64,000 nucleotides of DNA from contig JAQBVF010000001.1 in the NCBI GenBank assembly GCA_027623675.1, positions 117,497 to 181,496 on the forward strand. The letters are read 5' to 3'. The translations under genes were made by a program, and so were the position numbers. This document shows, piece by piece, positions 1 through 64,000 of the stretch. Under the pieces are notes generated by a model that had not been told where the DNA came from, made no database searches, and saw only the letters and a program-made list of their open reading frames with translations. The DNA is from Chloroflexota bacterium. Its GTDB lineage: Bacteria > Chloroflexota > Dehalococcoidia > Lucifugimonadales > UBA3495. How positions within the stretch are numbered: the first letter of the stretch is position 1; each line of letters opens with the position of its first letter.

Positions 1-1478
1 CCGGACCCGGCGCCACCAACCTGGTCACGGGAATCATGGGCGCCAAGGCCGACTCCGTGCCCATGGTCGCCATCACCGGCCAGGTCGCCCGGGCTTCCCT
101 GGGTACCGAAGCCTTCCAAGAGTGCGATATCTGCGCCATCGCCGCCCCCACCACCAAACAGGTGTTCATGGTTATGTCCGCCGCCGACCTGGCGGACACG
201 GTGAGAGAGGCATTCCACGTCGCCCAAGAGGGCCGGCCAGGCCCGGTGTTGATCGATATTCCCCGGGACGTCCAGCTAGAACTCGCCGAAGCCAATTTCC
301 CCGAAGTGACCCCCATCACCGCGCCCGCTGTTTCCGATGAGGCTTTGGAGCGCCTGAAAGAGGCGGCCCGCCTGATCAACGAAGCCGAGCGCCCGCTCAT
401 CATCGCCGGCCACGGCGTGATGACCTCCGGCGGATCCAAAGAACTTCTGGAACTGGCCGAGCGGTCCGGCATACCGGTCATAAACACCCTGTTGGGACTG
501 GGCAGTTTCCCCGCCGGCCACCCCCTGAGCATGGGCATGCTGGGGATGCATGGCATGTACTGGGCCAACATTTCGGTGGACCAGGCCGACCTGCTGATCG
601 GGGTGGGCATGCGCTTCGACGACCGGGTTACCGGCAAGGTCGACACCTTCGCCCCACACGCCAGGATCATCCACATGGATATCGACGCCTCCCAGATCGG
701 GCGCAATGTTCCGGTGGAGGTCCCGGTGGTCGGCGACGCCAAGGCCCTACTACAGAAGTTGACGCCCATGGTGACCAACGTTCCCAGGCCCGACTGGATG
801 CAGTACATCCAGAACTTAAAGCAGGACCACCCGTCGCTGACCATCCCGCCCAGCGATAAGCTCCAGCCCCAGCAGGTGATCCGTGCTCTGGATACCATCT
901 TGCAAGACGACCCGGAGACCACGGTGGTCACCGGAGTGGGCCAGCACCAGATGTGGGCCGCCCAATTCCTGTCGTTCAAACACGCCAACACTTTCGTGTC
1001 GTCCGGCGGGCTTGGGGCCATGGGGTTCGAGCTGCCAGCCGCCGTGGGCGCCCAGGTTGGCAAGCCGGGCGCGCCGGTATGGGCGGTCGCCGGAGACGGA
1101 GGCTTTCAGATGACGCTTCAAGAACTGGTCACACTGTCGGAGGAGAAGCTGCCGGTGAAGATCGCCTTGATCAACAACGGCTACCTGGGCATGGTGAAAC
1201 AGTGGCAGGAGATGTACTTCGACAACCACTTGAAGGCGGTGCCGGTGAACGGCCCCGACTTCATCAAGCTGGCCGACGCCTATGGCATAGCATCCCTCCG
1301 GGTCACGGAGCATGAGGATGTGCTGCCTGCGCTGCGAAAGGCCCAGGCCCACGACGGCCCGTTCCTGATCGAGTTCGTGGTAGACTCAGACACCAACGTT
1401 TATCCCATGGTCCCGCCGGGCGGCTCTCTAGCCGACACGCTGGAGGACCCGGCCATGAGCAACCACAAAGGGATCTAG
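1..1478 (+). CDS. ilvB: Acetolactate synthase large subunit (5' partial, starts before window)
   Basis: Frame is open from the window start (GPGATNLVTG); GMLGMHG, RFDDRVTG, GQHQMW, and TPP motif GDGGFQM...NN. Confidence 0.95.
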   Translation, partial: GPGATNLVTGIMGAKADSVPMVAITGQVARASLGTEAFQECDICAIAAPTTKQVFMVMSAADLADTVREAFHVAQEGRPGPVLIDIPRDVQLELAEANFPEVTPITAPAVSDEALERLKEAARLINEAERPLIIAGHGVMTSGGSKELLELAERSGIPVINTLLGLGSFPAGHPLSMGMLGMHGMYWANISVDQADLLIGVGMRFDDRVTGKVDTFAPHARIIHMDIDASQIGRNVPVEVPVVGDAKALLQKLTPMVTNVPRPDWMQYIQNLKQDHPSLTIPPSDKLQPQQVIRALDTILQDDPETTVVTGVGQHQMWAAQFLSFKHANTFVSSGGLGAMGFELPAAVGAQVGKPGAPVWAVAGDGGFQMTLQELVTLSEEKLPVKIALINNGYLGMVKQWQEMYFDNHLKAVPVNGPDFIKLADAYGIASLRVTEHEDVLPALRKAQAHDGPFLIEFVVDSDTNVYPMVPPGGSLADTLEDPAMSNHKGI

Positions 1479-1510
1479 CGGGGGACCCAACGGAAAAATA
1501 ACTGAACAAC

Positions 1511-1542
1511 CCCCGGCCAAATTTATCTAACGATGGCCGGGG
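1511..1542 (+). terminator. Stem-loop after ilvB
   Basis: ccccggcca / tggccgggg 9-bp inverted repeat; weak U-tail. Confidence 0.4.
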
Positions 1543-1561
1543 CGTATTTACGGGAGTCCAC

Positions 1562-1975
1562 GTGGAAAAGCTATCTATTCAGGACGCTTCCCGCCGGCTG
1601 AATATATCCCAACGCGATGTGCGGGAATACATCCGGAAGGGCGAACTCAAGGCTGAACGCGACCCAGACTCGGAGCATGGCCGCTGGCTGGTGATCATGC
1701 CCGAGGAAGGCTGGCAAGACCATTTCAAGGCCTACCTGGATGAGTTGGACGCCAGCATCACCCGGTGGTGGTGGGTCAACGAGCATAAGACCGGGTCGGT
1801 CCATTATCTCGAGAGGACCGGCATCGAAAACGTCGAGCCCGATTACCTCTGTGGGCTATCCTCCGAGAACCTCTGGCCGTCTGCCGGCCATTCCCGGAAC
1901 GACCGCTGCCTGGAATGCCTGATGCGGGCCACGGAACAGGGACTGCCTCTGTTCGAGGAAGACCTCACAGACTAG
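1562..1975 (+). CDS. Excisionase/MerR-like HTH protein with C-terminal putative Zn-binding domain
   Basis: LSIQDASRRLNISQRDVREYIRKGELKAER (HTH_17-like); C-terminal H..C..CxxC; GGAG RBS before GTG. Confidence 0.7.
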   Translation: MEKLSIQDASRRLNISQRDVREYIRKGELKAERDPDSEHGRWLVIMPEEGWQDHFKAYLDELDASITRWWWVNEHKTGSVHYLERTGIENVEPDYLCGLSSENLWPSAGHSRNDRCLECLMRATEQGLPLFEEDLTD

Positions 1976-2018
1976 GGTTTATCCGGGGCCTATCAATGGT
2001 CGGTGCCGGCTGGAACGC

Positions 2019-3443
2019 CTAGCCCCCACCGCCGGGGCCGCCTGCGCCGATGCCCGGCTCGGTCATGCCGGCAGGGTCGAGAAGCTTGTCCAACTCGGCG
2101 TCGGACAATTCTGTCTTCTCCTTGGCCATCTCTCTGATGGTCGTACCTTTGGCCGAAGCCTCTTTGGCGATGGAGGCCGCGGCGTCGTAGCCGATGGCCG
2201 GCGCCAGGGCCGTCCCCAGCATCAGCCCCTTCTCAACCATGTCCGGCCCTACACTGGTGGCCGTGATCCCCTTGACGCACTGGTCGGCAAAGTTATGGGC
2301 CGACGCCGCCAGAAGGGAGATTGACTGCAGGATGTTGTAGGCCGCCACGGGCATCATGGTGTTCAACTCGAAGTAACCGCCCTGACCCGCCAGGGCCACC
2401 GAGGCGTCGTTGCCGATCACCTGGGCCACCACCTGAATCACCGACTCAGAGATCACCGGGTTGATCTTGCCCGGCATGATGGAACTGCCCGGCTGCACCT
2501 CCGGCAGGGATATCTCGCCCAGGCCCGCCCGGGGTCCGGAGGCGATGAACCGGATGTCGTTAGCGATCTTGTGCATGCTGATGGCGATGGTCTTCAACGC
2601 GCCGCTGGCCTCGACCAACGCATCCAAAGATGACTGGGCCTGGAAGTGGTTGGCCGTCTCTTTGATCACGATCCCCGAAGCCTGGGAGATCGTTAGGCAG
2701 GTCCGGCCGGAGAACTCCTCGTGGGTGTTCACTCCGGTGCCCACGGCGGTGCCGCCCAGAGCGACCTCAGCCAAGGCTTCTTGAGCGCGGTGCAGGCGCT
2801 GGATGCTGTACTCGGCCTGCCCGGCATAGCCCCGGAACTCCTGCCCCAGCCGAACTGGAGTGGCGTCCTGCAGGTGGGTGCGTCCCGTTTTGACGATGGG
2901 CCAGAACTCGTCGGATTTCTTGGTCAGTTCCTCGGCAAGAAATTCCAGCGAAGGAATCAGGTCTTCTTTGATGGACAGCAGCGCCGCCACGTGGATGGCC
3001 GTGGGTATCACGTCGTTGGACGACTGGCCCATGTTGACGTGGTCGTTGGGATGGACGAGCCTTGAGCCCAGGTCTCCGCCCAGGATCTGGCTGGCGCGGT
3101 TGGCGATGACCTCGTTGGCGTTGGTGTTGGTGGAGGTGCCGGAGCCGGTCTGGAATATGTCCAGGACGAAGTGCTCATCCAGCGTGCCGTCGATGACCTC
3201 TTGGGCCGCGGCGACGATGGCGTTGCCCGCCTTCTCCTCCAACAGGCCCAGCGACATATTGGTCTTGGCCGCCGACTGTTTAACCAGGCCCAGCGCCCGG
3301 ATGAAGGCCCGGGGAAAGACCAGGCCGCTGATGGGAAAGTTCAAAACCGCCCGCATGGTTGACGCGCCGTACAGGGCGTCGGCTGGGACTTCCATCTCAC
3401 CCATGGAGTCCCGTTCAATTCTCACTTTGGGGCGCGTGGACAT
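2019..3443 (-). CDS. fumC: Fumarate hydratase class II
   Basis: RIERDSMG, QTGSGTSTN, HPNDHVNMGQSSND, KTGRTHLQDA, GSSIMPGKINP. Confidence 0.95.
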   Translation of the reverse strand: MSTRPKVRIERDSMGEMEVPADALYGASTMRAVLNFPISGLVFPRAFIRALGLVKQSAAKTNMSLGLLEEKAGNAIVAAAQEVIDGTLDEHFVLDIFQTGSGTSTNTNANEVIANRASQILGGDLGSRLVHPNDHVNMGQSSNDVIPTAIHVAALLSIKEDLIPSLEFLAEELTKKSDEFWPIVKTGRTHLQDATPVRLGQEFRGYAGQAEYSIQRLHRAQEALAEVALGGTAVGTGVNTHEEFSGRTCLTISQASGIVIKETANHFQAQSSLDALVEASGALKTIAISMHKIANDIRFIASGPRAGLGEISLPEVQPGSSIMPGKINPVISESVIQVVAQVIGNDASVALAGQGGYFELNTMMPVAAYNILQSISLLAASAHNFADQCVKGITATSVGPDMVEKGLMLGTALAPAIGYDAAASIAKEASAKGTTIREMAKEKTELSDAELDKLLDPAGMTEPGIGAGGPGGGG

Positions 3444-3615
3444 GGCGGTACCGTCCTAAATCAAATCTCATGTTGGGCCAAAGCCCAAACCCACATGATT
3501 CTAGCGGCTGCAGGTCGACTTGGGTAGTGGGCGGTATCAGACACAAGGTTTCTGGGCCGCACGCCTCCCCGGGAGCGGCTCGATATTTTATGATTGCTGA
3601 CTGTAATATATCCAG

Positions 3616-5037
3616 ATGATTCGACGGATCGGGCGCAGACTGATAATCGCTTTCCTGGTGACGCTTGCCGTCGCCTGCGGCGCAGCGTCACCGGGCCCGT
3701 CCGAGGTTGTTCTGGCACAACCAACCGATACACCGGTCACAACCCCCGCAGAGAGGGCGCCGACGCCCACTCTAGTGGCTACCGAAAACCCCGCGGCTTC
3801 ACCGACCCGGCCGCCGGCGCGCTCTTCCACAATCGCTCCTCGGCCCGCCAGCCAGCAGGCAGCTTCGGAGCCCCTGCTGGATTGCACTCCGCATTCCCTA
3901 CCTCAGCGCACCCAGCGGTCGTTGGCCGTGGACCCGAATGACGATGACAAGATCTATATCGGCGTCGAGCAAGAGGGCTTCTTCAAAACGCATGACGGTG
4001 GAAAAACGTGGCAAAGGGCCGTAACCGGCATCAAAGCCTGGGACAGGACTGACGGGACGGGCCTCTGCTATGAGGAGTTTTACTCGACAATCATCGACCC
4101 CGATGACCCGGACCACATCTGCATCGCCATGGCCGGGGGTCCGGGCACGGTCAGCGTCACAAACACCAGCGCCGGAAACAACGGAGTGTACTGCTCGGTG
4201 GATGGAGCGGAGTCGTGGACTCAGAGAGTGAGCCCCCACATGAATACAGCGGTATATTCCATCTCCGCTGACCCGGAAGATTTCGACGTTATGTACGCCG
4301 GAGTGAACGGCGGTTCCTGCTCCAACCTGCCACCTGTGTGCGACCCCGACACCTATTTCAACTCGGTGGGGTCGGTGTACCAGACCAAGGACGGGGGTCT
4401 GACTTGGTCGGAACTCAACACATTGGCGGCGCGAGACGTTAGGGTAATCTCGGTGCGCGTTCACCCATTGGACCCCCATCTGATAGTGGCGGCGACCTTT
4501 TCCAAGGTCACGGTTCAAGGGGGAAACGCCGGCAATTTTGAAGGATCAACCCAATTGGGACTCATCCGGTCCCAGGACGGCGGGAAGACCTGGAGTAGTT
4601 CGGTGAACGGAATGAACGATTCTCCACGGGAACAGGCCCTTCTCGGCCTTGAGATATCACCTCGTAACCGGTCCCGACTGTACGTCACCGCCTCAAGCAA
4701 CACATCGTATTGGTCATCGGACTCAGGGGAGACTTTCCACCCGTCCCGCAGGATGACGGCCTTCGTCTTTGATCCGTTCGATAGCGCAGGCCTGCACATG
4801 CTGGGCAGCAATGGGGAATCGATACAGGAAAGCACCGACGGCGGTGAGACCTGGGGTATGATCTCCGCCACGCCTGGGTTTGTTTCCTTTCAGAGCGGGG
4901 TTCCAACCGCTCTGGTATGGAGCGGCAACGACCCTGACAAGGTATTCTTGTCCGGCCCGTACGCCACGCTTTATGTGTCGCCAGACGGTGGCGTCACCTG
5001 GTCGCAGTTGCTCTCCGCCGAGCGGCTACCCAAGTAA
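3616..5037 (+). CDS. Lipoprotein with BNR/Asp-box repeats (beta-propeller)
   Basis: Lipobox AVAC after basic/hydrophobic signal; Pro/Thr linker; repeated (S/T)xDGGxTW. Confidence 0.8.
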   Translation: MIRRIGRRLIIAFLVTLAVACGAASPGPSEVVLAQPTDTPVTTPAERAPTPTLVATENPAASPTRPPARSSTIAPRPASQQAASEPLLDCTPHSLPQRTQRSLAVDPNDDDKIYIGVEQEGFFKTHDGGKTWQRAVTGIKAWDRTDGTGLCYEEFYSTIIDPDDPDHICIAMAGGPGTVSVTNTSAGNNGVYCSVDGAESWTQRVSPHMNTAVYSISADPEDFDVMYAGVNGGSCSNLPPVCDPDTYFNSVGSVYQTKDGGLTWSELNTLAARDVRVISVRVHPLDPHLIVAATFSKVTVQGGNAGNFEGSTQLGLIRSQDGGKTWSSSVNGMNDSPREQALLGLEISPRNRSRLYVTASSNTSYWSSDSGETFHPSRRMTAFVFDPFDSAGLHMLGSNGESIQESTDGGETWGMISATPGFVSFQSGVPTALVWSGNDPDKVFLSGPYATLYVSPDGGVTWSQLLSAERLPK

Positions 5038-52951: not shown

Positions 52952-53934
52952 CCAGCGTCGGAGGCCCCAGCCAAAGCCACTATCAGGTACTGCACCACTG
53001 TTTAGCAACAGCCTCAAGGTACGCGCCAACCGCGCTCCATCCCGTGCCGGCGATGCAGGGGCTGAGGGAGATACTCCCGGCCATGCCATCCCCAGGCGCG
53101 ATGGCCGAGACTGACGACGGGCCGCCCGCCACCGCTCAATCGGCCCTGGAACTAATATCCATCGCAACGGGCCTCATCGTGCTATGGGAGGAATCGTCTC
53201 CGGCCAACCCGCTGGGCTGGGAGACGGTTGCTGGTGTCAGCCGGGTCCTGGCCGACCTCACCGACGAGCTGGGCCTGATCGTCCGCCTGGACAAGGCCGA
53301 CCTGGTCCGGGGGCTATACGTCATCATCGACCCGCAGGTCACCGGCGGCCGCACTCCCCTGGAGATCGGACAAGCAGCCATACGGGGCGGGGCGCGGATG
53401 CTGCAACTGAGAGACAAACTGCGCGACAAGGGCGAATCCCTGCCCCTGGCCCGCGGCCTGCAGAAGCTCTGTGCCGAGGCGGGCGCATCGCTGATCCTCA
53501 ACGACCACGCCGACGTCGCCGCCATCGTCGGCTCGGCGGGACTGCACGTAGGCCAGACCGACCTGCCCGTGGATCAGGCACGGTTGGTGCTGAAGCCTCA
53601 CCAAATCTTGGGCCGGTCCAACCACGAGTTGGAAGAGCTGGAAGAATCGGAGCGCATGGGCGCCGACCACGTGGCCTTTGGCGCCATCTACCACACCGAC
53701 ACCAAGGGCGTTGGCCGCCCACCCCAGGGCGTCGACCGGCTGCGCCGGGCCCGCGAGACGGCTAAAACCCCGCTGGTGGCCATCGGCGGCATCACCGCCG
53801 AGAATGCCGCGCCGGTGATCGAAGCCGGGGCCGATGCCATCTGCGTCACCGCCGCCGTGGGTTCAGCCACCGAACCGGAAGCCGCCGCGGCCCGGTTGGT
53901 CAAGGTGATCGAAGAGGCCGGAGGACGGGTTTAA
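52948..53934 (+). CDS. thiE: Thiamine-phosphate synthase with N-terminal extension
   Basis: LYVIID, QLRDK, LND, GLHVGQTD, GRSNH, T.TK, VAIGGI. Confidence 0.9.
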   Translation: MTSVGGPSQSHYQVLHHCLATASRYAPTALHPVPAMQGLREILPAMPSPGAMAETDDGPPATAQSALELISIATGLIVLWEESSPANPLGWETVAGVSRVLADLTDELGLIVRLDKADLVRGLYVIIDPQVTGGRTPLEIGQAAIRGGARMLQLRDKLRDKGESLPLARGLQKLCAEAGASLILNDHADVAAIVGSAGLHVGQTDLPVDQARLVLKPHQILGRSNHELEELEESERMGADHVAFGAIYHTDTKGVGRPPQGVDRLRRARETAKTPLVAIGGITAENAAPVIEAGADAICVTAAVGSATEPEAAAARLVKVIEEAGGRV

Positions 53935-54584
53935 TGCCCTCCCGCTACAGCGGCCACCTCTCCGGCATCGGCGCCAAAGTCATCGTGGAACTGACCGCAA
54001 GGAACCGCGACCGTGAGCAAGCGCTGGCGGTCTCCCGAGAAGTCATCCGGTTCTCGGCCAACGCCATCCGCGCCGTGCACCGCGGCGATTTCGACGATGC
54101 CCGCGAATTGATCGGCAAGGGCTCGGCCAGACTGCGCGAGGCGGACCACATCCGGGAGAGCAGCCCCCAGATATTCAACGCCGGGTTCATGAACGACGCC
54201 CGCAAAGAGTTCACCGAAGCCAACGTCACCCTGGCGGTCATCTCTGGTGGCGACATCCCCAGCTTGGAAGACCTTAAAGTGGACGCCGCGGCCTACATCA
54301 ACGGCATGGCCGAGGTCATCGGAGAGCTGCGCCGCTACATACTAGACGCCCTGCGGCGGGACGCCATCGAAGGCTGCCTGGAGTTCATGGACATCATGGA
54401 CGAGATGTACGGCGTGCTGGTCACCATCGACTTCCCCGAGGGTGTCACCAGCGGACTGCGCCACAACACCGATGCCATGCGCGGCGTGCTGGAGCGCACC
54501 CGGGGCGACTTGACCATGGCCCTTAGGCAGCACTCCCTGGAAGCCCGCCTGGCCGAGTGGGAGAACAACCGGACCGGCGCCTAA
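53934..54584 (+). CDS. Translin/Trax family protein
   Basis: RE.AL..SREVIR.SA.AIRAVHRG, KEFTEA, YINGMAEVIGELRR, LR...D.MR..LE. Confidence 0.85.
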   Translation: MPSRYSGHLSGIGAKVIVELTARNRDREQALAVSREVIRFSANAIRAVHRGDFDDARELIGKGSARLREADHIRESSPQIFNAGFMNDARKEFTEANVTLAVISGGDIPSLEDLKVDAAAYINGMAEVIGELRRYILDALRRDAIEGCLEFMDIMDEMYGVLVTIDFPEGVTSGLRHNTDAMRGVLERTRGDLTMALRQHSLEARLAEWENNRTGA

Positions 54585-54936: not shown

Positions 54937-56004
54937 GTGCTAGCAAACGCCCAGACCTGTGCGGTTATCGGCCTCGATGGATATGTGATCCAGGTAGAGG
55001 TCGACATCTCCCCCGGACTTCCCGCCTTCAACATCGTCGGCCTCCCGGACACCGCGGTCCAAGAAGCCAAGGAAAGGGTGCGCGCCGCCCTGCGCAACAG
55101 CGGCTGCGAATTCCCCCTCCGGCGGATCACCGTGAACCTGGCCCCCGCCGACCTTAAGAAAGAAGGGCCGGCCTACGACCTGCCGATCGCGGTCTGCATG
55201 CTGCTCAGTTCGGGGCAGGTAGACTCCATACCCGAGGGCGCCGTTTTCCTGGGCGAACTCGCCCTGGACGGGTCCTTACGCCACACCAAAGGCATCTTGG
55301 CCATGGTGTCGGTGGCCCGCGACCAGGGATACACCTCGGTGTTCGTGCCCACCATCGACGCCGACGAAGCATCGCTCGTGGAGGACGTACAGGTTTACCC
55401 TGTCTGCAGCCTACAGCACCTGATCAACCACCTGCGCTGCGAAGACGAGATCACCCCGGTGAGCGACGACCTGTGGGAGGGTATGGACGATAACGCCGGT
55501 CATTACGAGATGGACCTGGCCGACGTCCGGGGTCAAGAGCACGCCAAGCGGGCGCTGGAAGTAGCCGCCGCCGGGTTCCACAACCTGATCTTCAACGGCC
55601 CGCCCGGCAGCGGGAAGACACTACTCGCAAAGTGCCTGCCCTCGATACTGCCGCGCATGGCCCAAAAAGAGGCCCTGGAAGTAACCAAGATCTACAGCGT
55701 GAACGGGGTACTGTCCCCCGGTAACCCGCTGGTGCTGCAACGGCCCTTCCGGTCGCCCCATTACACCATCTCCAACGCGGGGCTGGTTGGAGGAGGCAGA
55801 ACACTCCGGCCCGGCGAGATCACCCTGAGCCACCGGGGCGTGCTTTTCCTAGACGAGCTGCCCGAGTTCAATCACACCGCCCTAGAGTCGCTGCGTCAGC
55901 CACTGGAAGACAAAGTGGTCACCATCAGCCGTGTTAGCGGCAGCGTCACCTATCCCGCCAGCTTCATGGCGGGGAAACAAACGACACAACTTTCTCCGAT
56001 ATAG
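54937..56004 (+). pseudogene. comM: ComM/YifB Mg-chelatase-like ATPase, 3'-truncated by island insertion near 55964
   Basis: [51 protein letters not shown]; breaks after YPASFM, lacking the expected LVAAMNPCPCG. Confidence 0.92.
55954..55973. other. Putative att site (attL) at the comM break
   Basis: cccgcca-gcTTca-tggcggg, a perfect 7-bp inverted repeat centred on the junction. Confidence 0.7.
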
Positions 56005-56222
56005 TTGGCGGGCCGCCCACTCATCCCGTCGATGACGGCCAGTGAAGCATCCTGTAATCTGCCATCGATGAATGGTCGATGTCGACACGGGCGGCCTAGA
56101 AGCGAATGACGCACCGATAATCTGAAGCACGTTCACGACGTAGACTCACACGCATACCTGGTTTCGACTAACGATGAAGTGGCAACTGATTAGGCGGTCC
56201 ACCTGTTGATTGACGCCAAGAT

Positions 56223-57125
56223 TCAACTTGAATCAGGCGTGGTCTTACTGATGACGATTAGGCGAAGCTCCCTTTTGAATTCCTCTACCAGGCCCCGAAG
56301 GCGAGGATGCTCTTCCATGAGGGCATATCCGGGAGCGATGTAAAGATTCTCCTCATCAATCTTCTCTCCTCCCAGCTCTGCTGCTTGGATGCGGCTGATG
56401 GATTCCAAGCCGTTGTTAACCCTTCCCCATTTATATTCGGTGGCCCTCCTCACATAGTCGACCATCGCTCGCTGTAATTCTTCATATCGGTCTGTTATTT
56501 GTCGTCCCTGGCTCTCTTCGAGGAATCTAAGGACCTCGTAAAACTCGGTCTCCTCGACGTCTGCGAACCAAACCTTCACGACCGAAAGAACCTCCTTGCC
56601 GACCTGTCGCTTGGCCCGCCGGTCCCAGGACATGCGCTCCTGTATCCCCTGTGTCCAGCAGAATGCTCGCCCATTCACCTCAGCCTCGCGGAAGCCTGGC
56701 CCGCCTTCCATGAAGTAGATTGGGACTTGATCTGGTTCTGGCACCCACATGTTTTCCAACAGCATCAAGGTGCGGTCGGCCAAAGGATCATGACTGATGT
56801 TTTCTTCTTGCCCTTGGTCTTCGCTACGGGTCTCCGGTGCACGTTTCCAAGCAGTCCACTTGCCGAACATGGTTTGAACGTACCGCAAGGTGGCCCCGTA
56901 CCCTGCCTTCGCTGCAATCCCTCCGCCGATTTGGTCGTCGATTCTGTCAAGGGCTCTGCGTTGGAATTCGGAGACCACATTGAACGCCCGGTTGACCGTG
57001 GTCCGGTTTCGCCCTTCAAGCTCTTGACGAGCCAAATTCTGCGGGTCACCCCGCTTGACGCTTCGGAATATAACCTCAAGTTCGACTCCGGAAAGTTGCT
57101 TTGCCAATTTTCCAGCACGGTCCAT
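56223..57125 (-). CDS. Hypothetical protein (island)
   Basis: 300-aa ORF with GGAG RBS; no recognisable motif. Confidence 0.7.
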   Translation of the reverse strand: MDRAGKLAKQLSGVELEVIFRSVKRGDPQNLARQELEGRNRTTVNRAFNVVSEFQRRALDRIDDQIGGGIAAKAGYGATLRYVQTMFGKWTAWKRAPETRSEDQGQEENISHDPLADRTLMLLENMWVPEPDQVPIYFMEGGPGFREAEVNGRAFCWTQGIQERMSWDRRAKRQVGKEVLSVVKVWFADVEETEFYEVLRFLEESQGRQITDRYEELQRAMVDYVRRATEYKWGRVNNGLESISRIQAAELGGEKIDEENLYIAPGYALMEEHPRLRGLVEEFKRELRLIVISKTTPDSS

Positions 57126-57243
57126 AGGCTCACTCCCATGCAGGTAGACATCGGCCCTATCGGCCTTAGTGTGCAATCGCGTGCGCGAAAGTCACCTGGT
57201 AGTTTAATGCCTCGCACCTGGAAATGGTGTTCCATGGACGTGT

Positions 57244-57399
57244 ATGGGTCGAAAGTATCGTCAAATCACCGTACAGCGAATCGAGGTCGTCCAGAAGACA
57301 GCACAGGACGATCAACGCGCTCTTCGACGCGTCTTTGAATTGATCTTGAAAGCGTCGCGACAGGATCTATCGTCCCATGATTCTCATCCCGGTCGATAA
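57244..57399 (+). CDS. Small hypothetical protein (51 aa), absent from the ORF track
   Basis: MGRKYRQITVQRIEVVQKTAQDDQRALRRVFELILKASRQDLSSHDSHPGR; ends 12 nt before the AAA gene. Confidence 0.55.
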   Translation: MGRKYRQITVQRIEVVQKTAQDDQRALRRVFELILKASRQDLSSHDSHPGR

Positions 57400-57411
57400 A
57401 GGGTTGGTTGA

Positions 57412-58494
57412 ATGTACCTTAAAGACTTTCTGTCCCAGAGTAAAGAAACCGAATGGCTCGTAGATAGGCTAATCCCAGGCAATTCCAAAATCTTGATAGC
57501 TGCTCCCCCCGGCCATGGCAAGAGTTGGACCCTTGAGGCACTCGCAATCAGTGTTAACTCGGGACAACCGTTCCTGAATAAGTACGCCCTCGATCAAGCC
57601 GAGTCCGTCGCCCTCTTGGACCAGGACACCCCAAGTGACATTCTGGCTGATAGGATGCGAGCCCTCAGCTTCGACCGACCCGCGCCGTATATCCGGGTCT
57701 TCTCACAAGAGGGCCTCTACATAGATACGGTGCGAGACACCAACCGATTGATTCAGTATCTAGAAGAAATTCAGCCGAAGCTGGTCATCTTGGAAACCCT
57801 CGAAACAATCACATCCGACAAATTCGACGAGAACCGGGCAAAAGATATCGATCGCCTTTTCAAGAACTTGAGCCTCATTCAGAAGGAATTCCAGTGTGCT
57901 GTGGTACTTTCCCATCATTTAGGCAAAGGACGCCAGGGCACCGAATCCGGAAATCGCATTAGAGGCAGCAGCGCTTTGTTGGCCCGTGTTGACGTCGCTT
58001 ACACGCTGCAACGACTTTCCGGGTCCAACGCAACCCGCCAGTTCTTGATCCAACCCATCCCCAAGCGCGTCCAGACCGTCCCCGGGTTTCTTTGTGAGCT
58101 GCTAACTGAGGAGAATGAGGGTAAGTTGGTGGCCGCCGAGATGCGATGGGTCGTGGATTGGACTACTAACCTGGACCCAGCGTTGGCGGACGGTAGGACG
58201 ATGGTTTTGGACCTACTCCGGGACCGGGCGAGAGAGGGGCTTACGGTTAACGAAGCGGTCCAGGTTAGCGGCGGGTACTTCGGCGACCGTGAGACGCGGG
58301 AAATACTTCGGAGTCTCCTCGAAGAAGGTTTGATCACCCGAGCCGTTGAAGCGCATGGCCGGTTCCGATTTTGGCTTCCTGAGTTTGTGCCTAGCCAATC
58401 ACCAGCCATTGCTCTGCCAGCGGGTGTTCCATCAGATGGCCAATGGCAGGATATAGAGAGCAAGTTATCAAGTACTCAAACGCAGGAAAGCTGA
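57412..58494 (+). CDS. AAA_25/RepA-like SF4 helicase with C-terminal wHTH
   Basis: WLVDRLIP, Walker A APPGHGKS, Walker B LVILET, VVLSHHLGK, RGSSAL. Confidence 0.85.
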   Translation: MYLKDFLSQSKETEWLVDRLIPGNSKILIAAPPGHGKSWTLEALAISVNSGQPFLNKYALDQAESVALLDQDTPSDILADRMRALSFDRPAPYIRVFSQEGLYIDTVRDTNRLIQYLEEIQPKLVILETLETITSDKFDENRAKDIDRLFKNLSLIQKEFQCAVVLSHHLGKGRQGTESGNRIRGSSALLARVDVAYTLQRLSGSNATRQFLIQPIPKRVQTVPGFLCELLTEENEGKLVAAEMRWVVDWTTNLDPALADGRTMVLDLLRDRAREGLTVNEAVQVSGGYFGDRETREILRSLLEEGLITRAVEAHGRFRFWLPEFVPSQSPAIALPAGVPSDGQWQDIESKLSSTQTQES

Positions 58495-58598
58495 AATACT
58501 GTGAACCTGGACCAGATCGCATATTGGATTTTTCGTCCACATCTAGGCGTGGCAGAATTGCAGTTTTTCAGGTTTTTGGGTTTTCGAAGGGGGTAGTC

Positions 58599-59084
58599 AT
58601 GAAGGATGATCTCTCGGTATTGATTTCCAGGACCGAGTCCAAAGGGGCCGCACTCCGTGCTCGCGGCGATCGACTGGAAGTGTGGGGGCTCGATAGGCTC
58701 GCTCCCGATCTCGTTGACGAATTGAAAGACCGAAGATCTGACTTGGTCAAATGCCTGAGTCACCGTGACGCTGAGGGCCGGAAAACGGCTCAGCTCTTGG
58801 CCTGGGCCTCCGAATTAGCTGAGCAGGAGCTTAGGCTGGAAAGGCCGGTGCGCTACACGGAGGCTCCACGGCGCATGGTGAGCACCATCCATGCGTCCTG
58901 GTATGCCACCCAGTACCTCAGAACCATCGCACTAGCCCGGCAGAGGATAGATAGTCGCCGGTCGACCGATTGGCCCCCGCAATGGTGGAGAGAGCGGGAA
59001 GAGGAAGGAATAGCCGCGCTAAGGAACCTCCGCACGGTGTTGGAGAACGGCGGCAAACGAGTCGCATCTGGCGGCCAAGTCTAA
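58599..59084 (+). CDS. Hypothetical protein with TubC N-terminal-like domain
   Basis: LISRTESKGAALRARGDRLEV....LAPDLVDELKDRRSDLVKCL. Confidence 0.7.
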   Translation: MKDDLSVLISRTESKGAALRARGDRLEVWGLDRLAPDLVDELKDRRSDLVKCLSHRDAEGRKTAQLLAWASELAEQELRLERPVRYTEAPRRMVSTIHASWYATQYLRTIALARQRIDSRRSTDWPPQWWREREEEGIAALRNLRTVLENGGKRVASGGQV

Positions 59085-59177
59085 GCTAAACACTCCAGCC
59101 CGCGAACGCTATATTGGTACGCCTAGAATCGCCCTACCTCTCCGTCACTCCGACCATGATTGGATATGATGCAACTG

Positions 59178-60209
59178 TCAAGAGGGGGCCTCTGGTGCAG
59201 GCGATTCCTCGAACGTGAACATGTCGGGCATCCCGACTCCTAGAGCCACAGCCTCATCCGATCCGAAAGACCGTCGTTCGAGCGGCATAGCCATCAACGT
59301 CTTGAGAGAGTCGGCCACACCCTGTTCCGCGATGAACGATCCCCGCAGGTAGACGTCGTCGATCTCCCGCACCACCCGGCCCGCGGCTTGGAGAGCCTCC
59401 AGGCCGTCATCCAGCAGTCCTTCCGGTATGTCCACCTCCTTGCCGCACGCCGCCACCAGTTCGGGGGCGGGTGAGTAGACGTGGCCGTCGTCGGCCAGCT
59501 CGTTCAACATGTGCTCCAAGGCCGCTTGGGCACGGAAGGGGGACAGGGGGTCGATCCCGATGTCCTGGGCGATCTTGTCGGCGGTCTTGAACCCGATGCC
59601 CCGGATGTCCTGGGCCAGCCGGTAGGGGTTCTCTGTGACTACCTGGATGGCCTCATTGCCGTAGGCCTTGTAGATGCGGGTGGCGTAGGTGGAGCTGACC
59701 CCGTGGCCCTGGAGGAACAGCATCACCTCCCGCACCTCCCGTTGGGCCTCCCACGCCTCTTGAACACGACTGATCCTGGCGGGACCGATGCCGGGGACCT
59801 GAGCGAGCCGGTCTGGGGCTTCTTCGATGACGTTCAGGGTCTCTTCACCGAACGCCTCGACCATGCGCCCGGCCAGGACCGGGCCGATGCCCTTGATCAG
59901 GTTGGAGGCCAGATACCGGCGGATGGCGTTGGCCGATGCTGGCAACGCTGAGGTGTAGTGGGACACCTGGAACTGGAGCCCGTACTTGGGGTGCTGGAGC
60001 CAGCGGCCTTGGAGGGAGAGGCGTTCACCGGGCTGGATCCCGGGCAAACTTCCCACCACGGAAACCAGGTCGCGCTGTCCTGGGGCCTTCAGGCGGCAGA
60101 CGGTATAGCCCGTCTCGTCCCCGCTGTAGACCAGGCGCTCCACCTCCCCGGTGAGTGTCTCTGGGCTCAACGGGCGATGGCGGCCTGTTATCCTGTCGGT
60201 GGCGCTCAC
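59178..60209 (-). pseudogene. RecD2-like helicase N-terminal fragment (no ATPase domains)
   Basis: GEVERLVY, HPKYGLQF, IKGIGP, NPYRLA.DI.GIGFKTADKIA; ends before Walker A. Confidence 0.85.
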
Positions 60210-60919
60210 TGGCGATGGTTCCCATTCGCCCACTGGGGCACGTGGTGGTTGGCGTTCTTCACTTCCGTTTCCAAGCCCCTATATCCCGGCTCGATGCTTT
60301 CCAGCAGTCCCCAGAACCTGGCCGAGTGGTCCGGCTGCTCGATATGGCACAGCTCGTGGAGGAATACGTGCCGCACCAGATGCCCGGGAAGAAATAGTAG
60401 GCTGCGGTTCAGGCTTATGTTGTGGTTCTGGGAACAACTGGCCCAGCGGGTGGTCTGCCCCCGCACCGTTGCCTTCTTGAATGGTATGCCGGATTCTTCA
60501 CTGACCGCCCGGAGCCAGGGGATGAGGCGGACTTGGGCCTTACGGTGGAGCCAGCGGGACAGGACTTGGGCCACGAACTCAATGTCCCCGACGTCACCCT
60601 CAACATAGAGTTGAGCATCCTGTGCCTGAGAGATTGAAATCCCGGTATCGTGAGTGGGCCGGTACTGGACCTCCCAGCGTTCGCCCAAGGCGGCCAGGTC
60701 GATGCGGTCGGGGCGGGTGATGCCGGGGGCGGACTCGATGGCCGCGAGGTGCCGGTCGATCCACTCCCGCGAGTCATTGATGATCCGTCCGATGTGGCGC
60801 CGGTTGAACCCCCTAGGGATGACCACCTCCAAGCCCTTCTTCGGAGACACCTTGAGGATGACCCTCTTGGCCCGGTGGCTTTCACGGACGGCGTAATCGA
60901 GTTTGGACACCATCACCAC
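60206..60919 (-). CDS. YgjP/DUF45 (M48-like) zinc metallopeptidase domain protein
   Basis: S.RAKR..L, GLEVVIP, QTTRWASCS, HELCH..PDHSARFW. Confidence 0.9.
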   Translation of the reverse strand: MVMVSKLDYAVRESHRAKRVILKVSPKKGLEVVIPRGFNRRHIGRIINDSREWIDRHLAAIESAPGITRPDRIDLAALGERWEVQYRPTHDTGISISQAQDAQLYVEGDVGDIEFVAQVLSRWLHRKAQVRLIPWLRAVSEESGIPFKKATVRGQTTRWASCSQNHNISLNRSLLFLPGHLVRHVFLHELCHIEQPDHSARFWGLLESIEPGYRGLETEVKNANHHVPQWANGNHRQ

Positions 60920-61144
60920 GATCCTCCCCTGCCGGCCGCCCGGTCGGCCACTTTTTGTTCACTGGCCTGGTTCCCGCTCCGCGATGGGGATATTATACCT
61001 ACTCAACGCGATGCCTTGATGACATTTATGAGAAGGTAACCAGTTATGGGACCAGTCGGCCGAGCTGGTGAATACGGGCTAATCGTCGAATGTGTAAAAT
61101 AGGGGTGGCAAGCGAAGCACAACAATGGAAGGATAAGGAGCGAT

Positions 61145-62797
61145 ATGACCAGCGAGCAAGCCCTGGATAGCACCGAACTGGATGTGGTGATCGTCGGCGG
61201 AGGAGTAAGCGGCTTATATGCCCTGTATTGCCTGCGCGAGCTCGGCTATCGGGTGAAAGTCTACGAGCAGGGTGGGGATGTCGGCGGCACCTGGTACTGG
61301 AATCGCTATCCAGGTTGTCGATGCGATATCGAAAGCCTTGAGTACTCATTTTCCTTCGACGAGAACCTAGAGCAAGAATGGCAGTGGCCTGAACGGTATG
61401 GCACCCAACCCGAGATCCTGCGTTACCTCAACCATGTGGTTGAGCGGCATGACTTGCGCAAAGACATCGTTTTCAACTGTCCGATCACGTCTGCAACGTT
61501 CAACGAGGAAGCGGACCAGTGGTTACTATTGACGGGAGAGGGACAACGTATAACTAGCCGGTTTTGCATCATGGCCACGGGCAACCTGTCGACACCTCGA
61601 GTTCCCGACTACGAGGGCTTAGATGACTTCCAAGGCAAGTGGTATCACACCGGGCAGTGGCCCCACGACGGTGTCGATTTCACTGGCCTGCGCGTTGGCG
61701 TTATCGGGACCGGCTCCTCCGGCGTGCAGTCCATCCCGATCATCGCCCGACAAGCAAGCCATCTCTATGTATTCCAGCGGACCCCACAATTCTCCCTGCC
61801 GGCCCGCAACGGCCCAATGGAAAGCGAGAAAGAGGCTGCGCACAAGGCCAACTACCGGACCCTCCGTGAGGCTGCCTTTGATACGCCTTTCGGCATAGCT
61901 GGTTATCCGCCACCAACACGGTCGGCACTAGACGTGTCGCACGACGAGCGGCAGGCCTCCTACGAAGAAAAGTGGGCCGAAGGGGGCAGTATCAGCTTTC
62001 TATACACCTACAAGGACCTCCTCACTAACAAGGAGGCGAATGATACCGCGGCCGATTTCGTGCGCGATAAAATTCGGCAGACCGTCAAGGATCCGAAAGT
62101 GGCGGAGAAGCTTATTCCGTACGACCACCCGATTGGGACCAAGCGCCTGATACTCGACAGCGGATACTTCGAGACCTACAACCGAGACAACGTCACTCTG
62201 GTCGACATTCGCGAAGCCCCAATCGAGCGATTCACCCCGGAGGGATTGCTGACAGCCGATGGGAACGATTACGAACTGGACGCGGTAGTTTTCGCAACCG
62301 GCTTCGATGCTATGACCGGGGCTCTGCGCAATATCGAACTGGACAATGGAGCAGGACTTACCATTCAGGACAAATGGTCGAATGGACCGCGTTGCTTCAT
62401 GGGGCTGGCGATGGCCGGCTTCCCAAACCTGTTCATGATCACCGGACCTCAGAGCCCATCGGTAAAAACTCAGATGATTCTGGGTGCCCAGCAGCATACT
62501 GATTGGATCGCCGAATTCCTGGAGTATATGCGACTCAACGGCTTTACCCGGTTCAATGTTGAGCAGCAGGCTGAGGATGCCTGGGTACAGCACAACAATG
62601 ACATCGCGGACTCGACGCTTTATCCACTAGCAAACTCTTGGTATGTCGGTGCCAACGTTCCGGGCAAACCCCGCGTCTTCATGCCATACGTTGGGGGCTT
62701 TGACCGCTACACGAGGGCCTGCGACGAGTTAGCCCAGAATGGTTATCCGGGCCTACAATTTAGTGGTCGCGGCCAAACAGTAAATGCGGCTGATTGA
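61145..62797 (+). CDS. Type I Baeyer-Villiger monooxygenase
   Basis: GGGVSG, GGTWYWNRYPG, fingerprint FQGKWYHTGQWP, GTGSSG, ATGFDA, SWYVGANVPGKPR. Confidence 0.93.
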   Translation: MTSEQALDSTELDVVIVGGGVSGLYALYCLRELGYRVKVYEQGGDVGGTWYWNRYPGCRCDIESLEYSFSFDENLEQEWQWPERYGTQPEILRYLNHVVERHDLRKDIVFNCPITSATFNEEADQWLLLTGEGQRITSRFCIMATGNLSTPRVPDYEGLDDFQGKWYHTGQWPHDGVDFTGLRVGVIGTGSSGVQSIPIIARQASHLYVFQRTPQFSLPARNGPMESEKEAAHKANYRTLREAAFDTPFGIAGYPPPTRSALDVSHDERQASYEEKWAEGGSISFLYTYKDLLTNKEANDTAADFVRDKIRQTVKDPKVAEKLIPYDHPIGTKRLILDSGYFETYNRDNVTLVDIREAPIERFTPEGLLTADGNDYELDAVVFATGFDAMTGALRNIELDNGAGLTIQDKWSNGPRCFMGLAMAGFPNLFMITGPQSPSVKTQMILGAQQHTDWIAEFLEYMRLNGFTRFNVEQQAEDAWVQHNNDIADSTLYPLANSWYVGANVPGKPRVFMPYVGGFDRYTRACDELAQNGYPGLQFSGRGQTVNAAD

Positions 62798-62870
62798 GGC
62801 AGCTTGCGCGCAAGCCTTGCAGTATACCGCTTAACATCTTGAGCACATCGGCAAAGGAAAAGGCCCGCAT

Positions 62871-63077
62871 CAGCACCTCCGCCCGTCGCCTGCCCGTGAG
62901 GATCAGGGTCAAGTTGATGGCCCGATCACGGAGGCCGATTGGGGTGTCGGGAACCGTGTTCAGAAGTTTCTTGATATCTGCGGAGGGTAAACCCCTGGGC
63001 AGCGCTGGCGCCGCTTTGGGGCGCTCAAGCTGGTCGCAGGGGTTGGCGGCCACCCGGCTCATGCGGACTAGAAATCT
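62871..63077 (-). pseudogene. Tyrosine integrase internal fragment
   Basis: RFLVRM..VAANPCDQLERPK...PRGL...IKKLL...GLRDRAI.LTLILTGRRRAEVL. Confidence 0.8.
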
Positions 63078-63164
63078 ATCGCTAAACTTTCTTGGGTATA
63101 ATCTACCAAATTTGTAAGCCCAGCGCGTGCCCTCGGGTAGGCGCAGCATCTCGGGGAGCAAAAC

Positions 63165-63899
63165 TTGAGTATCGACCGGCAGCGAGTGTCCCGCCGGGAC
63201 AAGGCAGTATTGGCGGAATTGTTCGAAACCCTTGCGGAGTCAAAAGGTTCTTGGAGAGAGAAGCCATTAACTGCTTTCGCGGCACTCAAGGGGTCGGAGG
63301 ACCCGTGCCTGCTAATGGTTATCGGTAGAGCGGTGAATGGTTGGAGGAAAGATAAGTGGTTCGCCGACGATATCAAGATTCCGGATAAGCGGTCGGAGAT
63401 TTTGGACGACACGTTCATCCCAACGACATGGCACGACAACGAACCGATGCGATGGGTAGACCTGGGATGGGGTGCAAGGGACCGGTACAACACTAAAAGA
63501 TCTGCGTTCTGGCGAGTCATACAGGCTTCAGCCAAGCAGCTAGGCATCGACGACATCGCTAAGATCTGTTGGACCAATCTATACAGGGTCTCGCCTCATT
63601 CGACTGGGAACCCATCGAGCCGATTGGCTGCCGCCCAATTTGACCATTGCCTCCAAATGCTCAAGATCGAGATAGAGGACTGGAATCCTCGCCGCCTTTT
63701 GTTTCTGACCGGGTATAGCTGGGCGAAACCATTTCTTGAAGGGTTGGGTTGGGAGCCGGATTTCAAAGTCCATAATGCGGCAGTGGAGGCTGCGGGATCT
63801 GCTCCGGATGGAACAAGAATCGTTGTTGCCCCACACCCTCAAGGGAAGCCTCAGAATAAACTAGTTTCGGCAATCATAGAAGCCTACAACCCGACCTAA
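63165..63899 (+). CDS. Uracil-DNA-glycosylase-fold protein
   Basis: LMVIGRAVNGW, SAFW, WTNLYR, EI....P..LLFLTG, PHPQ. Confidence 0.7.
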   Translation: MSIDRQRVSRRDKAVLAELFETLAESKGSWREKPLTAFAALKGSEDPCLLMVIGRAVNGWRKDKWFADDIKIPDKRSEILDDTFIPTTWHDNEPMRWVDLGWGARDRYNTKRSAFWRVIQASAKQLGIDDIAKICWTNLYRVSPHSTGNPSSRLAAAQFDHCLQMLKIEIEDWNPRRLLFLTGYSWAKPFLEGLGWEPDFKVHNAAVEAAGSAPDGTRIVVAPHPQGKPQNKLVSAIIEAYNPT

Positions 63900-63901
63900 T
63901 C

Positions 63902-64000
63902 GTGAAACTCGTTGTTGCAATGCTGGTAGCGAACCTGCTCCTTGCCTGCTCGACCACAGAGACTGTCACTGACCTGTTTGATCCGAGCGAGCGGTTCGAA
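63902..64000 (+). CDS. Putative lipoprotein (3' partial)
   Basis: MKLVVAMLVANLLLACSTTET..., lipobox LLAC; open to the window end. Confidence 0.5.
   Translation, partial: MKLVVAMLVANLLLACSTTETVTDLFDPSERFE

Follow-up and report, generated by a model that had tools for sequence, protein, structure and literature searches.

A large serine recombinase island in comM of an uncultured Dehalococcoidia bacterium, whose insertion probably also clips a short tail from its own integrase

Mg-chelatase-family genes are the commonest target of predicted site-specific integrases (12.4%), and competence genes are enriched among the targets of large serine recombinases (LSRs; Durrant et al., PMC10083194). In Proteobacteria, mobile elements disrupt comM at a conserved position, which has been interpreted as limiting the transformational removal of mobile DNA (PMC4774983, PMC12378983), with ComM described as helpful, not essential, in the latter account. 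The serine integrase of Bacillus phage vB_BsuS-Goe14 truncates itself on entering spoVK, losing 131 aa and leaving a 97-aa ORF (Kohm et al., bioRxiv 10.1101/2021.11.22.469490). The ssrA islands of Dehalococcoides carry a CcrB-like LSR, DsiB, whose 3' end overlaps the att site and which its authors suggested is perhaps fully functional only on the circle; DsiB C-termini were found to be divergent, with no evidence of a conserved tail (McMurdie et al., PMC3146451). In the archaeal suicidal tyrosine integrases of SSV1, pTN3 and pT26-2, the att site lies inside the gene, which is split on integration (PMC8371274).

The locus described here shares features with these systems. Like the elements of Durrant et al. 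(PMC10083194), as these are presented there, it pairs an LSR with insertion into a Mg-chelatase/YifB-family gene, and it shares with the published proteobacterial elements a conserved insertion position in comM. On balance, we consider it probable that, in part of the population, an LSR island has inserted into comM at its Phe343 codon and that this insertion clips from the integrase a tail that would be rejoined only on the excised circle, where it likely biases the enzyme towards integration. The comM insertion itself is ordinary and published; what was not found in print, within the parts of the literature consulted, is a circle-only tail of about 20 residues with measured selection, in two comM-targeting clades.

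The interrupted comM gene and its two junctions

The window, by which we mean the whole 64,000-nucleotide stretch analysed, ends where contig C47 ends, position 64,000 being the last. In a profile search, the ORF at 54,937-56,004 (+) matched residues 8-344 of TIGR00368, the YifB/ComM family (E 1.5e-123). Codons 1-344 (54,937-55,968, +) constitute the 5' part of comM (yifB), with the ChlI domain, Walker A at residue 221 and Walker B at 303, and are 88-90% identical to intact comM within the genus. The original prediction placed the end of homology at YPASFM, and this is where it falls: after codon 344, at 55,968, 11 unrelated, element-derived codons and a stop (55,969-56,004, +) close the truncated frame, where intact comM of genus relatives reads YPASFM and then YPASFMLVAAMNPCPCG. 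GC content changes from 0.62 upstream to 0.55 in 55,969-59,298. The 344-codon piece would be inactive, because the NPCPCG and RISGPLLDR segments that follow Walker B in the intact protein are missing together with the C-terminal domain. Upstream of comM, a gene at 53,934-54,584 had a below-cut-off match to archaeal PRK14562 models (best E 1.8e-76), which we take to be translin-like.

A six-frame search of the genome located the comM 3' half at a single place, on contig C22, and both halves matched PF01078 and TIGR00368 in complementary ranges in the profile search. Read in the direction of comM, C22 carries a cargo-gene end, a tRNA-Sec 3' half, a 72-aa HTH gene of the excisionase family that overlaps the integrase start, a 534-aa LSR, and FMLVAAMNPCPCG up to the comM stop. 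The expectation that the left junction was the attL of an LSR element, with the integrase and the comM 3' half lying together beyond 64 kb, was thus borne out, since C47 ends at 64,000 and the LSR, attR and the 3' half are all found on C22.

The host-side B arm of attL spans 28 bp (55,935-55,962, +) and is followed by a 7-bp core common to attL and attR (55,962-55,968, +; attR copy at C22 3,969-3,975, - strand); in relatives the shared core is TTCA, TTC or TT alone. The crossover dinucleotide TT (55,963-55,964) provides bases 1-2 of the Phe343 codon, and the P' arm (55,965-55,992, +) is an inverted-repeat match to the P arm on C22. Both proposed reconstructions could be obtained. Joining the host sides (attB) yields an open ComM frame of 508 aa, and joining the island sides yields an attP whose arms match at 20/28 positions, with the outer 11 perfect, when centred on TT, and at no more than 10/28 at other centres here.

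An inverted repeat around the central TT had first drawn attention to this junction. It is present as described, forming the inner part of attL (55,954-55,973) with 7-bp arms at 55,954-55,960 and 55,967-55,973 around gc-TT-ca, and it is unlikely to occur by chance at a fixed spot, because a perfect repeat of 7-bp arms and 6-base spacer is found at 350 of 3,069,437 genome positions. The repeat did point to the right base, but as a palindromic att site it is peculiar to this copy: the mirror is 7/7 here and 2-5/7 at the attL of seven related two-ended elements, and is therefore no general rule. The diagnostic symmetry lies instead in attP, where it peaks at TT in all eight two-ended elements (12-20/28, the next best centre reaching 9-11), in agreement with the predicted crossover.

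The assembled parts of the island amount to 8,032 and 2,431 bases, giving a length of at least 10.5 kb; no contig-end overlap in the genome bridges the unassembled middle, and C22 ends in a repeat common with contig C18. The two junctions might accordingly be thought to derive from different elements, in a tandem array or in different strains, in which case the reconstructed attP and the full-length integrase would never exist. That no contig spans the island and that its contig ends lack overlap would fit such an origin. We consider it very unlikely: arms vary between elements, yet P' is matched nowhere in the genome better than by P on C22, an unrelated site tying at 20/28, and both island ends have equal depth in metagenome run X1 (26.8 and 27.8). 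A second attP or an array inside the island was rejected, as the assembled parts hold no further att or arm copy; a tandem array or a second integrase could still lie in the middle, because that part is unassembled.

The tRNA-Sec 3' half on C22 (L001:6037-6091, +) covers positions 43-97 with 89% identity to the host gene on C23, and is followed by a TAGGC-type flank, as is selC in many family members; it is probably what remains of an att site once used by a selC-targeting element. In several genomes of the family 2-5 such halves occur, often 1-3 kb apart. Twelve bases at 56,002-56,013 also recur at the end of the tRNA-Sec half, resembling a direct repeat that would suggest a nested selC element; this reading was rejected, since 94 of 2,000 random island windows matched as well and those bases belong to codons of the integrase tail motif described below. 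A perfect TATAAT (L001:5760-5765, -) abuts the first ATG of the HTH gene, 7 bases before the second, an arrangement resembling that of leaderless transcripts and absent from the consensus-scan list. The gene cut by the end of C22 (L001:6182-6406) is 94% identical to a gene at the end of C18 (G000:C18:39315-40278), near a tRNA-Leu gene; in the C18 copy an in-frame TGA precedes PGCC, which makes it look like a GrdB/PrdB-type selenoprotein. Other serine recombinases of the genome (C39:79128-80660 and on C31) are 26-28% identical to the comM integrase.

Related elements and an integrase tail in frame only on the circle

Among 40 related genomes, 22 had a real match to comM, which was broken in the insertion zone in four. 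In a class-wide sample comM was found in 362 of 401 genomes, a tally that takes in the source genome and G256 (flagged unpublished), and at least 14 of 361 genomes carried clear insertions (37 hand-picked, junctions visible in 27, 14 clear). Within about 30 bp of comM lie three separate sites, each taken by a different, distantly related integrase group: site 1, the TT, by integrases 48-63% identical to that of the comM island, and site 2, 6 bp further on, and site 3, a TG in the NPC|P codons, by integrases 25-28% identical. The TT site holds eight elements with both ends, 33-175 kb long where contiguous; this set excludes G653, whose 5' junction was unmatched by the pattern, and G875 has one end only. 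The element of G876 lies in the opposite orientation and shares TT alone as its core.

Two same-clade elements (L094 and L095/L156/L158) occupy the same TT in reverse orientation, as a flipped attP dinucleotide would predict. Among relatives of the comM-island integrase with genomic context, L094 is the nearest (63%). Seven clade members (L036, L043, L098, L107, L109, L114 and L119) apparently lie inside other serine recombinase genes, the evidence being a translated flank for L043 and similar tails for the other six. Of 19 genomes in the host's genus, 10 yielded neither comM half (G001, G006, G007, G009, G010, G012, G013, G014, G018 and G019), some of them 91-92% complete, possibly reflecting either real loss or assembly breaks at the hotspot.

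The comM-island integrase has the domains PF00239 (Resolvase), PF07508 (Recombinase) and PF13408 (Zn-ribbon) above cut-off in a single open frame, and its catalytic Ser21 is invariant in 13 sequences. In the integrated state the frame runs through attR and stops 7 codons on in another comM frame, giving 534 aa; across attP it would read on for 24 codons located just inside attL, giving 551 aa. The TT crossover that breaks comM also splits the integrase gene, a point beyond the original prediction. The clipped 3' end (55,964-56,035, +; 23 codons and a stop, with no start codon) is in frame only across attP, and its motif L-R-Y-S-W (55,994-56,008) lies outside the 28-bp arm.

The circle tails of the eight TT elements are all open for at least 19 codons and share the consensus [LI]-[RQH]-Y-[ST]-W, usually followed by x-[AV]-x-L, with Y and W invariant in 8/8. 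Over codons 11-19, identity by codon position is 0.67/0.68/0.38, and single-base differences comprise 64 synonymous and 8 replacement changes where 25% synonymous is expected under neutrality, compared with 28:82 and 32:84 in the other forward frames; no p-value is attached to 64:8 because the pairs are not independent. On these sequence comparisons, we conclude that the tail is under protein-level selection. The conserved stretch in attL could in principle be a DNA site, such as an extended attP or a box for an accessory protein, and it does adjoin the P' arm, where constraint at the DNA level is expected. This seems to us hardly credible, given that third codon positions vary while first and second positions are constant in the integrase frame only, that serine is spelled with both AGY and TCN codons, and that a natural gene carries the motif in frame. 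Of the eight tails, that of the present copy diverges furthest (leave-one-out score 22.1, with 37 equal or better genome positions) and may for that reason be decaying.

None of the best 120 database relatives carries the tail motif; their ends are tails read from various target genes. An out-of-sample scan upstream of six clade members outside comM recovered tails in two, at 42.6 and 21.5 kb from the integrase, each with an arm match of 18/28, the same dinucleotide and the right frame, and with a score reached by no position in 6.14 Mb of the present genome. The remaining four comprise one natural in-frame gene, one ambiguous case and two without a tail in the stretch fetched. The natural gene (L037:1348-3012, on G002:C4) encodes a full-length integrase that includes the tail in frame, and a short stretch within its P arm is duplicated; the chromosome here harbours an attP that has not recombined. 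A different circle-only tail, N-Y-T...R-R-V...L, characterises the distant NPC|P clade, with the same stop codon position in 7/8 and 61 synonymous against 28 replacement differences (33% expected). In this set G002 failed the pattern and G372 is not element-like, and the codon count was made without G179 and G032, which have an extra codon, and the divergent G270.

The predicted structure of the natural full-length relative (mean pLDDT 74) aligns with the SPbeta, Bxb1, phiC31 and LI integrases to about residue 503 (best alignment Z 18.0, rmsd 22, 436 aligned), and the tail is modelled as two extra strands with a pLDDT of about 45-69, from one sequence. Because the alignment with solved LSRs extends that far, the model indicates that the clipped enzyme keeps every known LSR domain and that the tail is an addition. 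This bears on the possibility that the integrase is suicidal, that is, that the clipped enzyme is inactive or unstable and the island is locked in place until a full-length relative or the tail of a neighbour becomes available. The strong selection on the tail does imply that it is needed in some reaction, the best 120 database relatives are all clipped and yet islands of 33-175 kb with IS and defence genes persist, and there is an archaeal precedent (PMC8371274). We nevertheless regard a suicidal integrase as unlikely, since the clipped form lacks nothing of the stretch alignable to complete, active LSRs, all 8/8 elements have an unbroken gene, and here it has its own upstream HTH gene.

In the mechanism that we favour, the circle would make the long, 551-aa enzyme, which would insert the element at the comM TT; insertion would break comM and clip the conserved tail of about 20 residues, and the clipped integrase would probably excise only rarely, with a directionality factor, the tail being rejoined to the enzyme only on the excised circle. 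The HTH protein beside the integrase is a candidate for this factor; no counterpart of the HTH gene was found beside related integrases, nor any conserved directionality factor near them. The element may gain by disabling the ComM helicase, which, following the published idea, helps transformation to remove mobile DNA. Against this mechanism stand the low pLDDT of the tail strands, modelled from a single sequence, and the ambiguous and apparently tailless elements among the six outside comM. Whether the tail sets direction, as opposed to its clipping causing a plain loss of activity or stability, appears about evenly balanced. Should it set direction, a state-dependent control of a serine integrase could hardly be smaller.

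Intact and interrupted comM in the population

The locus was carried by metagenome runs X1 and X2, either or both of which may be the source of the genome. One X2 contig of 7,287 letters (depth 9.07) covers the comM 3' half with letters 1-1,101 and the 5' half with letters 1,095-4,063, with zero differences on both; the two placements were taken as one contig because of their equal length, equal depth and 7-letter overlap, which is the 7-bp core itself. An intact comM allele with identical flanks exists and is the exact attB. Host contigs of X1 (depth 47.4 and 46.8) break exactly at the core, and its island-end contigs are continuous through attL and attR, so that island ends stand at about 0.6 of host depth and empty sites at about 0.4, a rough occupancy because contig depth is not the share of cells. 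A chimeric assembly, which the original prediction had named as refuting it, as would the absence of a downstream 3' half or recombinase, is contradicted at this junction because the contigs of X1 and X2 branch exactly at the core. The mixture of intact and broken comM with identical flanks shows that a gain or a loss took place recently in this uncultured aquatic lineage. A wider metagenome scan for the locus gave three distant matches only. Runs X3-X9 contributed small shares, with cargo pieces found in X3 and X7 when X3, X7 and X8 were compared, and X10 contributed almost nothing.

The proposal that excision would restore comM is upheld by the open joined frame and by the exact empty allele in X2, and the suggested search for an empty site or an excised circle yielded the former but not the latter: no attP branch was seen in the X1 and X2 contigs, which drop rare forms. 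The further suggestion of a competence switch fared less well. Intact and interrupted comM do coexist, and a regulated switch like that of the Listeria comK prophage, in which a signal would cause excision, comM would be restored for transformation and the element would then re-insert, would be consistent with the intact integrase and att sites, with an empty allele that is common in two samples, with the presence of intact comEC and dprA and a pilus-type ATPase in the host, and with an excision that would restore comM and a complete integrase in one step. Such a switch nonetheless seems improbable and is unsupported by the contigs, as X1 holds no attP branch although empty sites reach about 0.4 of host depth, intact comM is usual in relatives (4/22 interrupted), no conserved directionality factor was found, and ComM is presented as an accessory factor, not a regulator or essential part (PMC12378983). 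Most cells with intact comM probably belong to a sub-population that lives alongside the interrupted one and never had, or has lost, the island, and are not in a programmed on-state. Given its intact comEC and dprA, the host could still be affected by the loss of comM. The gene yifB is reportedly among those listed in the TIGER paper on regulated gene integrity. A bolder form of the reading that we favour, in which a single event flips two genes, excision restoring comM and completing the integrase, with the tail acting as a discarded integration-licensing switch in at least two distant clades and most database copies clipped, strikes us as possible, if doubtful.

Within the window, the island cargo begins with a 317-aa ORF (56,223-57,176, -) that had no family match in Pfam, NCBIfam, PADLOC, PHROGs or Atlas. 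It is followed by an AAA_25 (RepA-like) helicase (57,412-58,494, +; PF13481, E 1.9e-24, with matches to primase/helicase PHROGs), possibly the replication gene of the element to judge from its family, and by a small ORF (58,443-59,084, +) with a weak likeness to TubC_N-bearing phage proteins (Atlas 0.91, below the recognition mark), which is a lead only. A captured block (59,178-64,000) then reaches the contig end and includes a truncated RecD2, a YgjP/M48 peptidase, a Baeyer-Villiger-type monooxygenase, a tyrosine-recombinase fragment and a UDG-like gene. From 59,269 to 64,000 the depth in both X1 and X2 climbs to roughly that of the host, further graph paths enter at the RecD2 truncation, and two marine runs from other studies, X3 and X7, contain pieces of the block at 98-100% identity; this stretch is a shared mobile block with the monooxygenase, fused into the island. 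No conjugation or virion genes were found in the assembled 10.5 kb, from which the island middle is missing. In two complete islands of relatives, restriction-modification, SIR2-HerA, ThiF-JAB and AIPR genes accompany many transposases; 81 of their 108 ORFs were scanned with no match to conjugation or virion families, and they have no genes in common with the cargo of this island.

Comparison with known systems

A literature search, not exhaustive since it missed the Goe14 preprint, found no published account of a Chloroflexota comM island, nor of an LSR tail that is short, conserved and confined to the circle. Neither Chloroflex- nor Dehalococc- matched in eight supplements of PMC10083194, no passage in its main text places attP inside the integrase gene, and the available portions of PMC12286644, PMC12884075 and PMC3816273 describe no closer case. 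Because none of the best 120 relatives carries the tail, integrases mined from chromosomes for genome engineering, which are read in the integrated state, have possibly been assayed in the wrong form. The tail also offers a direct test of an idea only speculated on in the Goe14 and DsiB papers, as the two enzyme forms are about 20 residues apart.

In contrast to the proteobacterial comM elements, the island resides in an uncultured host that its named relatives mark as Dehalococcoidia-like, and the elements compared here use three comM sites within about 30 bp. The precise excision of the Listeria comK type, which restores the reading frame, has its equivalent here in the 508-aa joined frame and the empty allele of X2. 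The archaeal integrases use tyrosine chemistry and, as described, have their catalytic domain split off on integration, whereas here no known LSR domain is separated from the others and only a short tail is removed. The DsiB islands are closer, with an LSR gene overlapping the att site in what we infer to be the same host class; they target ssrA, whereas the present island targets comM, and the dsiA/recF/parB/mom module reported for them is absent from the assembled parts here, the middle being missing, with an HTH gene and a tRNA-Sec half beside the integrase. The Goe14 integrase, from its published description, likewise has attP inside the integrase coding sequence, so that integration shortens the protein; Goe14 leaves a long ORF, whereas the comM island leaves a piece of about 20 aa without a start codon, on which selection could be measured across many elements.
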